Positions 49,121 through 52,281 of a stretch of 55,829 nt of DNA are shown here, piece after piece. Every line of letters starts with the position of its first letter. Position 1 is the first letter of the stretch. The notes beneath the pieces are model-generated. The model saw only the letters and a program-made list of their open reading frames with translations, did not search any database and was not told the origin of the DNA. The position numbers and the translations under genes are program-made. The stretch is from contig MU005958.1 of assembly GCA_010093745.1 (NCBI GenBank), positions 620,001-675,829 of the forward strand, in the 5' to 3' direction. The stretch is from Piedraia hortae CBS 480.64. Taxonomy: Eukaryota.

Positions 49121-49816
49121 CTATAACAACCTCCAACCTTTGCACTCAAAGTTGGCATAGCAGCGGAATTCGTTGCTCAGCCCGCGACCGTGTTCGGGCT
49201 CGAAGCTCGTCACCTTGATCCCAACGGCACTGTACAGTCTTTGCACGAGCGCACTCATACGCTCACCCGTACAGGCGACCAATTTGGTATCCTTACTCCA
49301 CTGTTTGACCAGAAACCGCACGGTCAAAGCCATCTTGGTTTGGCAGTCATCAGAAAGGAATGGGGGGTCAATGATGACGCAGTCAAATGCGCGTTTTAAC
49401 TCGGCCGGGAGACGTAGGGGATGATTATAGTCGTACTGTACAAATTCCTTGCCAAACACGGCGAAGCGAGGATCATACTCCAGCAGCTTTACTTCTATTG
49501 AAGTGCTCTGGATGGTGTTCTTAAGCGCGACATAGGCACTTGGTGCGGATATTACAGCAATCTTGGCATTTGGGTGCAGCCCCTCGACCAGTGCTTGAGC
49601 GAGGACATCAGACGTTTGCTCAGAGTACCAAAACTGAGAAATATTCCAGTCTTCGCCAAATATTGACATTGTTAGTTTACCGGACTGTACATCAAAGTTC
49701 TTCTCAGCGGCGAGTTGCATCTCTTGAAAGCGTTGATCCTGGGCCTCTTTCTCGCACAGGAAACCCTGCAAGAGTGCCAGCGTATCTGCTGGCAACTCGA
49801 TCTTTTCCTCATCCAT
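49121..49816 (-). CDS. EFM5: eEF1A lysine methyltransferase Efm5 (N6AMT2 family)
   Basis: EDWNISQFWYS, IAVISAPS, LLEYDPRF, DPPFLS.DCQTK, CTGERM, GLSNEFRCYANFE. Confidence 0.93.
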   Translation of the reverse strand: MDEEKIELPADTLALLQGFLCEKEAQDQRFQEMQLAAEKNFDVQSGKLTMSIFGEDWNISQFWYSEQTSDVLAQALVEGLHPNAKIAVISAPSAYVALKNTIQSTSIEVKLLEYDPRFAVFGKEFVQYDYNHPLRLPAELKRAFDCVIIDPPFLSDDCQTKMALTVRFLVKQWSKDTKLVACTGERMSALVQRLYSAVGIKVTSFEPEHGRGLSNEFRCYANFECKGWRLL

Positions 49817-49948
49817 TGCTGTCTAGCGAAGCTTTTCCAAGCTGTTCGAGCCTTCGAACTTCGAGGCAACGACTAAGCGTAACGGAAGGGCCCGACCATT
49901 TTATCCCCATCAGCCTAACCGCATTGGGATGAAAATCAGCTCTGCTCC

Positions 49949-50289
49949 ATGCATCCCGTTTCGGTGCTTACCTTTGGCATCTTCTTCGCTGGCTACATCA
50001 CTGCTCGTTGGGATCTCGTCACACGACTCTACGAACTTGCCATTTTCGCCTGGGACCACGGAGTAATCGTGCGTTTTCCCTTTGAAACTCGCATTCTGCC
50101 ACTAACGGCCGCCAGACACGCCTTGCACAGGGCTTCGCGCTCATATCCATCTGCTTTGCGTTTCTCGCGGTGCCGGTGGAGCGCATTGCGTCACGAGCAA
50201 GCGGGGCAGGAGGAGAGTTGCCGGGGCCGGGGCTGCTCGACCCCGGCATCAGTGCAAAGGAACAATTGCGTCGGCGAGGGTCATTCTAA
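49949..50289 (+). CDS. 97-aa hydrophobic protein immediately upstream of GPI1
   Basis: Canonical 47-nt intron 50069-50115 (GTGCGT..ACTAAC..CAG). Product: MHPVSVLTFGIFFAGYITARWDLVTRLYELAIFAWDHGVI/TRLAQGFALISICFAFLAVPVERIASR..ISAKEQLRRRGSF*. Confidence 0.78.
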
Positions 50290-50304
50290 AATGGGTCCGT
50301 TAGC

Positions 50305-52281
50305 ATGCCCAAGTTGATGCGCCTTTTTTGGCCTTTGGATGCGGCAGGCAATGGCCAAGCCGGCGCGTTGGTTGGTTGGTGCAACTCGGAGCGGGACTTT
50401 CTCGTTGCCGCTGTTTTACCTGGCGTCGAGGCACGCGATGCAGAACACGCACTGAGGAATGGGAGTCTGTTGAGAAGCCAGCACCCACTTGAGCGATTGT
50501 TGAGGAGATGTGGCGGTCGGCCGTTGCAGGTTTTGGGTACTTTCAATGGCCCATGCGAAGGCCGGCTCTCTCTGCGCCAGACAGCCGATGACCTGGCTCC
50601 GCGGATCCTCGATCGTGGTGATGCCGAAGCGGTTCAGATCTTTGTCCTTGAACGGCCAAACCCTTGGCAAATGCAATACTTTTCCCTTGCGCCGCTCTCG
50701 CTGGCTGCGCGGCCGCAGTTGGATAAGGAAGATAAAGCTGAGCAGCAAAGAAAGGAGCGTCTTATTGCCAAAGTGAAACAGCATACTGTTGTAAGGCATG
50801 TCCACACGGCCCAAGAGATGGCGCTACCGGCCATCATCAGCCAGATTAATTGCTCTGCTGAGCTGGAAGGGCTGATGCGACGCAACATTGGCTGTGTGGG
50901 CGTCCAAAGGCCGAGGAGCCTGAGTGAATTGGCGGTGCAATTTGCAACTGAACTGGGGGCTAGAGTACTGGGCGGCATGCCCAAGCGGGCCCGATATCTC
51001 TCTGTGCGGGCACTGGGCACACTGTTAGTAATGCTACGAGTTGCGGCCGAGGTGCTGCTCACACTGCTGAACAAACGGTTATGGAATATCTCGATCCGAG
51101 ATGTGTCTGCTACGGCTCAACAAGTTGATATGAGGCTCCAGCAATTCTGCCACTGGCCCGGCCAATGGGTAGCCATTACGCGACGAGGACGTGACTGGGC
51201 AAGCTGTTCAGAAGGACATGCCGAGTATGTGCGTTTCTACAACAGTCTCTGGCTCGTGGCCAACGACCTCGTATTTGGCGTGGCCTTAGGAACATACCTG
51301 CTACAGCATGCTGATTACGTTGCAGCAAGAGCAGATGAGGCCGTTGCTACAGCGTCAGTGGCTGGTCTGCAAGGCCTTGTCCGCTGGCTAATGGACTGGC
51401 CTGCCGGGTTGAAGCTCAATAATGACTTGGCCTACTTCCTTGGCGACATGTTTCTCTGGGTTATGGAATACTGGGATGGTAGTATGAGACAGCTACGCCC
51501 TCTGCTGCCGCGGGCCGTGCAGCTCATTGCCTTGTCGAGCTTTGTCGGGGCCAGCTTGCCCATCAGCTTATTATCAGACGCACTCTCACTGCTAACGCTG
51601 CACATATGGTCATTCTACCTGGCGAGTGCTCGCTTGTATAGCTGGCAGCTAACGGTCATATACTCATTGTTCCAGCTCTTTCGGGGGAATAAGGTCAATG
51701 TACTGCGAAACCGCATCGACCGATGCGACTACGATTTGGACCAGCTGCTTCTCGGCACCATACTGTTCACGCTGCTGTTCTTCTTGCTGCCGACCGTCGC
51801 CGTCTTCTACGTCACTTTTGCGGGCGGGAAAATGGTTATCATCACCCTGCAGGCCTTACTCGATACAGCACTTGCTTGTCTCAATTACTTTCCGCTGTTT
51901 GCTTTGATGCTTCGAGTGAAAGATCCGCGACGCCTACCAGGAGGCATCCGCTTTGAGCTTTGCCCGTCAGTAGACTCTACTGTTCCAACGGCTCATGTGC
52001 GGCTAAAGGTAAATATCTCTGTTATCTCTATAGACTGAACTGACGCGTTACAGCCCATTTCTCTGCCACTGTCGCACATTTTTGCACAGTATGCGCAGCT
52101 TGGTGTGTCTCTACGACGTCATTACCTGTCAGCTCACGTAGCAAAGTGTCTGGCCACGGGGCAGGATGTGCCGTCAATGCAACGTCAGGGTTTATATGCA
52201 CTACAGTATCGCATGCTTCCCGAGCACAAGCTCAGCATCAGCGAGCTGTGGAAGCTTCTGACAGAGATGGATTGTAAATAG
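50305..52281 (+). CDS. GPI1: GPI-GlcNAc transferase subunit Gpi1 (PIG-Q)
   Basis: SATAQQVDMRLQQFC.WP, YVRFYNSLWLVAND, WLMDWPAGLKLN, LFRGNKVNVLRNRID.CDYDLDQLLLGTILFT, KDPRRLPGG. Intron 52009-52053; TAG at 52279-52281. Confidence 0.95.

Follow-up and report, generated by a model that had tools for sequence, protein, structure and literature searches.

The fungal cell wall requires synthesis of the glycosylphosphatidylinositol (GPI) anchor, an essential pathway that also serves as an antifungal target. The enzyme that opens it, the GPI-N-acetylglucosamine (GlcNAc) transferase or GPI-GnT, is a poorly understood multi-subunit complex, whose small subunits vary by lineage. Two of these, Eri1 and PIG-Y, are proteins of about 70 amino acids (aa), and human PIGY reportedly shares a bicistronic mRNA with PreY (PYURF), as Murakami et al. 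2005 are said to have described. When two reading frames of one mRNA are both reached by leaky scanning, the first AUG is classically weak and the second strong, with few others in between. We report here on a locus of the fungus Piedraia hortae CBS 480.64 at which a short, intron-containing gene for a predicted membrane protein lies immediately upstream of GPI1. The locus is contained in a stretch of 55,829 nucleotides (nt) (contig MU005958.1, positions 620,001 to 675,829 of the forward strand), hereafter the window, whose own coordinates are used throughout.

The locus is similar to the human PIGY/PreY pair in that a tiny two-helix protein, connected with the GPI-GlcNAc transferase, would be encoded on an mRNA with two reading frames. 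The order differs, however: the human small subunit is the downstream cistron, behind an open reading frame (ORF) that is not GPI-related, whereas the small protein of the window comes first and is followed by a cistron for a GPI-GnT subunit. The two small proteins showed no similarity in sequence. Eri1 and PIG-Y are described, in a preprint (bioRxiv 10.1101/2024.02.28.582498), as the least conserved subunits of GPI-GnT, 14-22% identical, with two transmembrane segments each. The small protein of the window is like Eri1, PIG-Y and DPM2 in its size, its two hydrophobic segments, its predicted location in the membrane of the endoplasmic reticulum (ER) and a possible link to the Ras/cyclic AMP-dependent protein kinase (PKA) pathway, suggested for Eri1 by the same preprint, and here by an invariant RRGS sequence. 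Unlike them, it belongs to a family of longer proteins (92-97 aa) with a conserved amphipathic middle helix, an invariant C-terminal motif and no detectable homology to these subunits, and its association with the enzyme is putative. Concerning translation, leaky scanning that depends on start context is documented in Neurospora (PMC7049704). Like the dual-start mRNAs of Neurospora and Cryptococcus that use leaky scanning, and like upstream ORFs (uORFs) encoding conserved peptides, the locus presents a weak first AUG, a strong next one and a conserved upstream peptide; unlike them, it contains a full gene of 92-97 codons with an intron, which does not overlap the downstream ORF and is in no fixed frame with it. 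The arrangement combines known kinds: the bicistronic mRNA of eukaryotes, the uORF with a conserved peptide and the small accessory GPI-GnT subunit.

The two genes and the segment between them are composed as follows.

49949..50068, plus strand: small gene, exon 1, 40 codons from the ATG at 49949; first hydrophobic helix and amphipathic helix
50069..50115, plus strand: small gene, intron of 47 nt, phase 0 (GTGCGT...CTAAC, the branch site,...CAG)
50116..50289, plus strand: small gene, exon 2, 57 codons and TAA (50287-50289); second hydrophobic helix, variable linker and C-terminus
50290..50304, plus strand: intercistronic spacer of 15 nt, in frame (NGSVS, five sense codons), from reading of the sequence
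50291..50317, plus strand: out-of-frame mini-ORF MGPLACPS-stop, A at -3; its TGA (50315-50317) overlaps the in-frame GPI1 ATG at 50317 (TGATG)
50305..52006, plus strand: GPI1 (PIG-Q), exon 1, 567 codons, start codon with A at -3; Pfam PF05024, E 1.6e-105
52007..52051, plus strand: GPI1, intron of 45 nt, GT..AG, spliced in an RNA-derived contig
52052..52281, plus strand: GPI1, exon 2 and stop codon, from the ORF list and database protein P0271

The 97-aa translation of the two small exons is letter for letter database protein P0001, retrieved by a search with exon 2 and annotated in P. hortae CBS 480.64 as 'phosphatidylinositol glycan, class Q'; the same search gave a 92-aa relative, P0002. Similarly, the spliced GPI1 product is identical to P0271 (643 aa). 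The intron at 50069-50115, with GT..AG ends, is precisely skipped by a public contig of 7360 nt. The GPI1 intron at 52007-52051 is skipped as well, and this contig is therefore RNA-derived. The RNA evidence at the window comes from a single public run, whose RNA label is a guess, and was used only for the joints that its contig bridges. All the coordinates proposed in the initial annotation for the small ATG, intron, TAA, spacer and GPI1 ATG were reproduced by reading and spliced translation; its intron proved to be used, its downstream gene is indeed GPI1 according to the Pfam match above, and the out-of-frame ATG that it had placed at 50291, whose short ORF overlaps the GPI1 start, is present. 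It had also stated that the ORF is absent from the ORF list owing to its intron. This needs a small correction: the spliced 97-aa form is confirmed, but its start is listed, as an unspliced 122-aa ORF (49949-50317).

Two hydrophobic segments, as anticipated, are found around residues 3-19 and 43-62. An AlphaFold2 model built on the family alignment has a mean predicted local distance difference test (pLDDT) of 77.6, with helices at residues 3-18, 21-36, 39-70 and 87-93, the first and third of which correspond to the small two-transmembrane layout of PIG-Y and Eri1. The protein terminates in EQLRRRGSF, an invariant C-terminus encoded by 50260-50286. We conclude that the 97-aa ORF is a genuine gene, whose product is predicted to be a small ER-type membrane protein, with an amphipathic helix between its two hydrophobic ones and a tail free in the cytosol.

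The intron after codon 40 is at a position common to relatives, the locus L034 among them. Comparison with L034 and L044 shows that relatives possess another conserved intron, placed behind codon 71 where ...E-x-x-L meets H-P-R, which comes besides the codon-40 intron or replaces it. This second intron is lacking in the window, where the linker (50176-50259) is 5 residues longer and the near-invariant HPR is missing.

The small protein belongs to a large family. An exhaustive phmmer search returned 220 representative clusters at E<=1e-3, 201 of them at E<=1e-10, many of the 220 being unspliced exon-1 read-throughs called on genomic contigs, and, of 8000 candidates scored in a profile search, 1151 proteins had E<=1e-3. 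All named members among the best 120 listed are Pezizomycotina (Dothideomycetes, Eurotiomycetes, Leotiomycetes, Sordariomycetes and Lecanoromycetes). Alignment of 48 full-length members gave a 92-aa consensus with 78% mean column identity and 32 invariant columns, and an invariant C-terminus S-A-x-E-Q-L-x-R-R-G-S, in which R93, R94, G95 and S96 never vary; the final residue is F in at least 90% of the sequences. Proteins of the relatives are 92-97 aa long. Among 13 collinear coding sequences of 276 nt (78 pairs), the mean proportion of synonymous differences (pS) was 0.71 versus 0.17 for nonsynonymous ones (pN), a ratio of 0.24, which was 0.16 for residues 1-45, 0.41 for residues 46-70 and 0.23 for residues 71-92. 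Variable sites at the three codon positions numbered 55, 28 and 87 out of 92. As judged from these substitution patterns, the small ORF is under protein-level purifying selection. The amino-acid conservation (pN/pS and invariant columns) is also that of a conserved-peptide uORF, a likeness that supposes its position in the GPI1 leader.

Metagenome contigs were scanned for the family, and 80 loci were retained from 220 confirmed matches. A motif search placed R[IVL]FWP, typical of the Gpi1 N-terminus, no more than tens of bases past ...EQLRRRGSF-stop in 73 of these loci. For three others (L017, L025 and L026), GPI1 was found directly 3' of the small ORF by tblastn, and the remaining 4 contigs stop at the end of the small ORF or at most 48 nt past it. 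Linkage is therefore observed in 76 of 76 informative loci, and the conserved adjacency to GPI1, a check proposed in the initial annotation, was obtained without any unlinked relative. Spacer, frame and start contexts were then scored on 56 distinct sequences (55 loci and the window). The spacer, from the small stop to the first in-frame GPI1 ATG, measures 6-63 nt with a median of 20, so that the absence of room for a terminator and a promoter, first remarked for the window, is a conserved property. Adjacent locus tags for the two genes also exist in public genomes, for instance WHR41_04334/04335 and PRZ48_011933/011934. Taken with the number of representative relatives and the purifying selection, this invariant linkage puts the small ORF, as far as sequence comparison can tell, far beyond chance.

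On the other side of the small ORF, the nearest upstream stop-to-stop ORF of at least 150 aa is at a median distance of about 920 nt, mostly on the opposite strand (37 distinct loci). The other neighbours present in the window, including a divergent methyltransferase gene, do not recur near the relatives, apart from one TLDc fragment downstream in L007, and conserved synteny with them was rejected. Since the pair stays linked while its surroundings are reshuffled, the small gene and GPI1 behave as one unit.

The frame of GPI1 relative to the small ORF was 0, 1 and 2 in 22, 18 and 16 of the 56 sequences, respectively. This relation is random, and the in-frame layout of the window is thus accidental, with a chance of one in three. 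Any of the three stop codons may close the small ORF, with a varied following base, and a stop is found behind the conserved C-terminus in every one of the 56 sequences. Programmed stop-codon readthrough leading to a fusion, which the initial annotation had put forward as one possibility, is not supported, given the random frame and the constant stop. The small gene and GPI1 almost certainly constitute a conserved two-gene unit of Pezizomycotina that specifies two separate proteins.

Public databases nevertheless contain fused versions. The small protein is present at the N-terminus of 26 of the 120 best Gpi1 database matches (among P0275-P0387), and also of P0008 and P0017. The junctions vary by species, being placed after residue ~70, after RRRG, or into differing points of Gpi1, which seems typical of gene predictors stepping over a stop; spliced RNA contigs retain both the small-ORF stop and the spacer. 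In addition, many stand-alone 92-aa proteins are named 'PIG-Q' or 'Gpi1' despite having no Gpi1 domain, a label carried over from the fused gene models. PF05024 was not found by Pfam in P0001 or P0002 and lies wholly in the downstream ORF. Fusion and naming together look like a systematic annotation artefact.

Several spliced contigs bear on whether the two ORFs are transcribed together. At the window, the RNA-derived contig is unbroken from 50116 to 52006, through the small-ORF stop, the spacer and the GPI1 start. The contig L038 (2669 nt) is a spliced copy of the genomic locus L044, at 99.4-100% identity, without the single intron of the small ORF and the two of GPI1. In this contig the small ORF (178-456) comes after a leader of 177 nt and is separated by 20 nt from GPI1 (477-2612), which reads through 711 aa without interruption; only a tail of 57 nt follows. 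L050 is the spliced form of the genomic L027, with the start of the small ORF missing. Two more contigs, presumed to be of RNA origin, have the same layout with an uninterrupted GPI1: L001 (ORFs at 70-348 and 379-2574) and L013 (294-572 and 602-2764). These contigs are assemblies, and were chosen by a search for contigs containing the small ORF. RNA covers both ORFs continuously in the spliced ones, although assemblies cannot prove single molecules. We consider it quite probable that the small ORF and GPI1 are on a shared mRNA.

The first 114 nt of L050 do not match L027; this piece, which we take to resemble the start of a plastid photosystem gene, was regarded as a chimeric plastid-like assembly product and discarded.

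Start contexts of the two ORFs differ markedly. The base at -3 of the small-ORF AUG is T in 52 and C in 4 of the 56 sequences, never a purine, while positions -10 to -4, -2 and -1 are variable; at +4, C is found in 55. The first in-frame AUG of GPI1 has a purine at -3 in 50 of the 56 (G in 35, A in 15). The window conforms to this, with T at -3 and C at +4 around the ATG at 49949, a weak context, and A at -3 for GPI1. Furthermore, the small ORF is poor in AUGs. None of 16 spliced coding sequences has an internal Met codon, and together they contain 14 internal ATGs, compared to 52.3+-5.8 after dinucleotide shuffling (minimum 35 of 500) and 27.4+-3.7 when synonymous codons were resampled according to the usage in the neighbouring GPI1 (minimum 17); no replicate of 500 was as low as 14. 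The 16 are related sequences and not independent trials. In the window, no ATG occurs between 49952 and 50290. Strict absence of AUG as a universal rule was rejected, being true only of the window and of 5 of its 15 spliced relatives. The signatures of leaky scanning, a weak first AUG, a strong second one and few between, are thus all present, and judging from these contexts it is reasonably probable that leaky scanning is the main route to GPI1.

Other ATGs surround both start codons. Of 54 distinct upstream regions, 35 contain one no more than 30 nt ahead of the small-ORF start; it usually has G at -3 and opens either a mini-ORF of 3-4 codons at -25 or -12, or an overlapping ORF of 26-36 codons at -16 or -25. 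In the spacer, exactly one ATG is found in 32 of the 56 sequences; it has a purine at -3 in 30 of the 32, and in 28 it is placed 8 nt before the GPI1 ATG. The spacer mini-ORFs end in ATGA (12) or TGATG (9), overlapping an in-frame GPI1 ATG. That of the window, at 50291, starts 14 nt before the GPI1 ATG and is of the TGATG type. The upstream and spacer mini-ORFs suggest a possible fine-tuning of translation. Finally, two in-frame GPI1 ATGs 21-24 nt apart are present in 45 of the 56 sequences, and the window has a second in-frame ATG at 50317; the pairing hints at a regulated choice of the Gpi1 N-terminus.

Loci with upstream ATGs of the kinds just described include L021, L041, L049-L056, L064, L073 and L076; in the window the upstream ATG is at -20 (49929) and opens 45 codons. 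The GPI1 reading frame of the window is uninterrupted for 567 codons, and most genomic relatives have an early intron about 50-60 codons past the start.

Searches for relatives of known function were negative. No Pfam match to PIG-Y/Eri1, DPM2 or Gpi1 was obtained at E<=10 for P0001, P0002 or any of the 48 members, and the kinship with PIG-Y, Eri1 or DPM2 raised by the initial annotation found no support there; Pfam searches with the two exons gave nothing relevant either. A profile search of the PDB with the small family gave 0 matches; the same search with Gpi1 also gave 0 matches, hence no solved Gpi1/PIG-Q structure was available for comparison in the PDB searched. No match was obtained by Foldseek with the AlphaFold2 model against the PDB, and among the named clusters of the ESM Atlas there was no usable match; a further Atlas search found only the family's own unnamed clusters. 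Prediction of a complex between the small protein and the Gpi1 of the window, run without family alignments or controls, scored 0.00, which counts neither for nor against an interaction.

A 14-3-3 mode III site is defined as R-x-x-pS-x-COOH, and the TASK channels have a KRR-x-S-V-COOH region for COPI, PKA and 14-3-3 (PMC4760375). The extreme C-terminus [RK]RRGSF contains an R-x-x-S/T-x-COOH with an adjacent basic cluster. By its sequence, [RK]-R-R-G-S-F-COOH fits the RRxS consensus of PKA, the 14-3-3 mode III motif and the TASK-type COPI/PKA/14-3-3 region; the PKA consensus, pointed out beforehand for the window, gains strength from the invariance of R-R-G-S in 48 sequences. The protein is like TASK-1 and TASK-3, as described in the same source, in ending with [RK]-R-R-x-S-hydrophobic-COOH, compatible with both R-x-x-pS-x-COOH and RRxS. 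Unlike them, it is an unrelated protein of another kingdom, so that the resemblance is one of motif, and as an ER resident it would use the motif for retention and not for surface delivery. By analogy, the C-terminus suggests a putative arginine-based ER-retrieval signal, which might be switched by phosphorylation.

On balance, we favour a unit of two cistrons, with leaky scanning as the way to GPI1 and a small protein that acts with Gpi1. One promoter upstream of the small ORF would drive an mRNA containing both reading frames. With the small AUG held in a weak context (T or C at -3) and the small ORF kept AUG-poor, some scanning ribosomes would bypass the small AUG and initiate at the GPI1 AUG, with its purine at -3, just past the stop. 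Alternatively, ribosomes may arrive at GPI1 by re-scanning after the upstream mini-ORFs, which would end too near to the small AUG for re-initiation there. The mini-uORFs before each start codon may tune leaky scanning, and that of the spacer may modulate the choice between Met1 and the second Met of Gpi1. The two products are separate polypeptides. The small one could join Gpi1 in or on the GPI-GlcNAc transferase as an accessory or regulatory subunit peculiar to this lineage, with its C-terminus as a site of control by arginine-based ER retrieval, PKA and 14-3-3. Because a single ER-bound mRNA would encode both proteins, and because the linkage was kept while neighbours changed, the small protein most likely acts with Gpi1; a role in or on GPI-GnT itself is a tentative suggestion that we draw from the gene arrangement. 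As for the initial proposal of a co-translated small partner made by re-initiation or leaky scanning, what stands is a separately terminated membrane protein locked to GPI1, with signatures that fit leaky scanning on a shared mRNA; the readthrough and the homology to PIG-Y/Eri1 or DPM2 are not supported.

A number of observations weigh against this scheme. The depletion of AUGs is incomplete, with 0-2 out-of-frame ATGs per spliced coding sequence (a TAT-GAG at offset 82, common among the small ORFs, is a source of the residual ATG), and it would also be expected if the transcription start site (TSS) of GPI1 lay inside the small ORF. A strong-context out-of-frame ATG is present in the spacer of 32 of the 56 sequences, and before the small ORF in 35 of the 54 upstream regions, so that ribosomes must follow a less simple route than leaky scanning by itself. 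Pfam, the PDB, Foldseek and the ESM Atlas gave no similarity, in sequence or fold, to a known GPI-GnT subunit. The RNA evidence consists entirely of assembled contigs, in which overlapping transcripts can be merged, as is reported for short-read assemblies in a Zymoseptoria Iso-Seq preprint. Lastly, the window contig contains the stretch of the 49949 ATG only in a form spliced on the opposite strand (see below). The plus-strand unspliced 49914-49970 is not represented in that assembly; contigs drop minor variants, and this is no evidence of absence. The most serious competitor, which we nevertheless hold to be rather unlikely, builds on several of these points and supposes two overlapping independent mRNAs, with a GPI1 TSS inside the small ORF and a small-gene mRNA ending inside GPI1, the tight spacing reflecting merely genome compaction and shared history. 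Assembled contigs cannot separate one molecule from two overlapping ones, a small ORF serving as GPI1 5' untranslated region (UTR) would also be depleted in AUGs, and head-to-head transcript overlap is tolerated at this very locus, as the intron spliced on the minus strand indicates. However, such a model leaves unexplained the pyrimidine at -3 of the small AUG in 56 of 56 sequences when neighbouring positions are variable; the spacer never exceeds 63 nt in distinct sequences of several fungal classes even though neighbours were reshuffled; and in several organisms RNA contigs contain just both ORFs and little else.

Lying in the leader of GPI1 with a start codon in weak context, the small ORF resembles regulatory uORFs, and it might be purely regulatory, or a chance ORF with a functionless peptide. 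The amino-acid constraint along its whole length (the three regional pN/pS ratios given above), the 32 invariant columns in 48 sequences and the confidently predicted helical membrane fold make this highly improbable. Equally hard to sustain is a single protein of which the small ORF would be the N-terminus, joined to Gpi1 by stop readthrough or by splicing out of the stop. The window is in frame and 26 of 120 public Gpi1 models are fused (P0008 and P0017 being examples), but the frame relation is random, the stop follows the invariant C-terminus in all 56 sequences, and the fusion junctions differ between species. Moreover, stop and spacer are kept in spliced RNA contigs, the 15-nt spacer is too short for an intron, and the stop of the window is TAA-A. 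More credible, though still improbable, would be a divergent Pezizomycotina orthologue of Eri1/PIG-Y. The small size, the two hydrophobic segments and the linkage to a GPI-GnT gene speak for it, and the 14-22% identity within that family, as given in the preprint (10.1101/2024.02.28.582498), would let homology escape detection. Against this are the absence of a Pfam match at E<=10 in 48 members and of a usable named Atlas cluster, and the length of 92-97 aa with a conserved amphipathic helix and a C-terminal motif that are not known from Eri1 or PIG-Y. Furthermore, a Colletotrichum paper (PMC8949851) reports BLAST homologues for all yeast GPI proteins except Gpi15, so that an independent Eri1 gene may exist in these fungi.

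The small protein is already in databases, as a 'hypothetical protein' or mislabelled 'PIG-Q'. In a non-exhaustive literature search, from which subscription journals were largely missing, we found no description of the small gene, of its linkage to GPI1 or of the bicistronic arrangement. Long-read papers on Zymoseptoria and Fusarium make no mention of GPI; the Fusarium pipeline needed ORFs of 100 aa, and the small gene would therefore be missed. A small protein tied to GPI1 across the sampled classes of Pezizomycotina, and apparently co-translated with it, is a candidate for a missing subunit or regulator in moulds, many of which are plant or human pathogens. In its most complete form, which we find doubtful, the proposal is that the GPI-GlcNAc transferase of filamentous ascomycetes has a subunit or regulator which is specific to this lineage and has so far escaped notice, an ER protein of 92 aa with two helices, made from the same mRNA as Gpi1 in a stoichiometry set by a weak start codon and flanking mini-uORFs. 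If true, this would be the mould counterpart of the yeast Eri1-Ras link. Among ascomycetes, few comparative cases of programmed leaky scanning on a functional two-cistron mRNA would be as clear as this locus, and it also exposes an annotation error, about a fifth of public Gpi1 models (the 26 of 120 best matches) wrongly fusing both genes.

The surroundings of the pair contain three further features.

49929..50066, plus strand: upstream out-of-frame ORF of 45 codons, G at -3; its ATG is 20 nt before the small-ORF ATG, and it overlaps the small-ORF start
49121..49816, minus strand: divergent gene of the N6-adenine-methyltransferase family (Pfam PF10237); its ATG is 132 nt from the small-ORF ATG
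49915..49971, minus strand: intron of 57 nt, GT..AG (donor GTAAGC), from an RNA-contig joint 49913->49971 with CT..AC ends; it removes the region of the small-ORF ATG

The methyltransferase-family gene is presumably Efm5-like. Between it and GPI1, the small ORF occupies what would otherwise read as a 488-nt divergent promoter and leader region. The intron at 49915-49971 is most likely a 5' UTR intron of the methyltransferase gene. It implies that minus-strand RNA begins right of ~50000, and consequently that the divergent transcription units must overlap head to head; the methyltransferase 5' UTR seems to begin inside the small ORF. At position 49880, 34 nt from the minus-strand joint, the RNA-derived contig has C where the window has T, a difference seen in one contig only, which may reflect strain variation, editing or a mere error.

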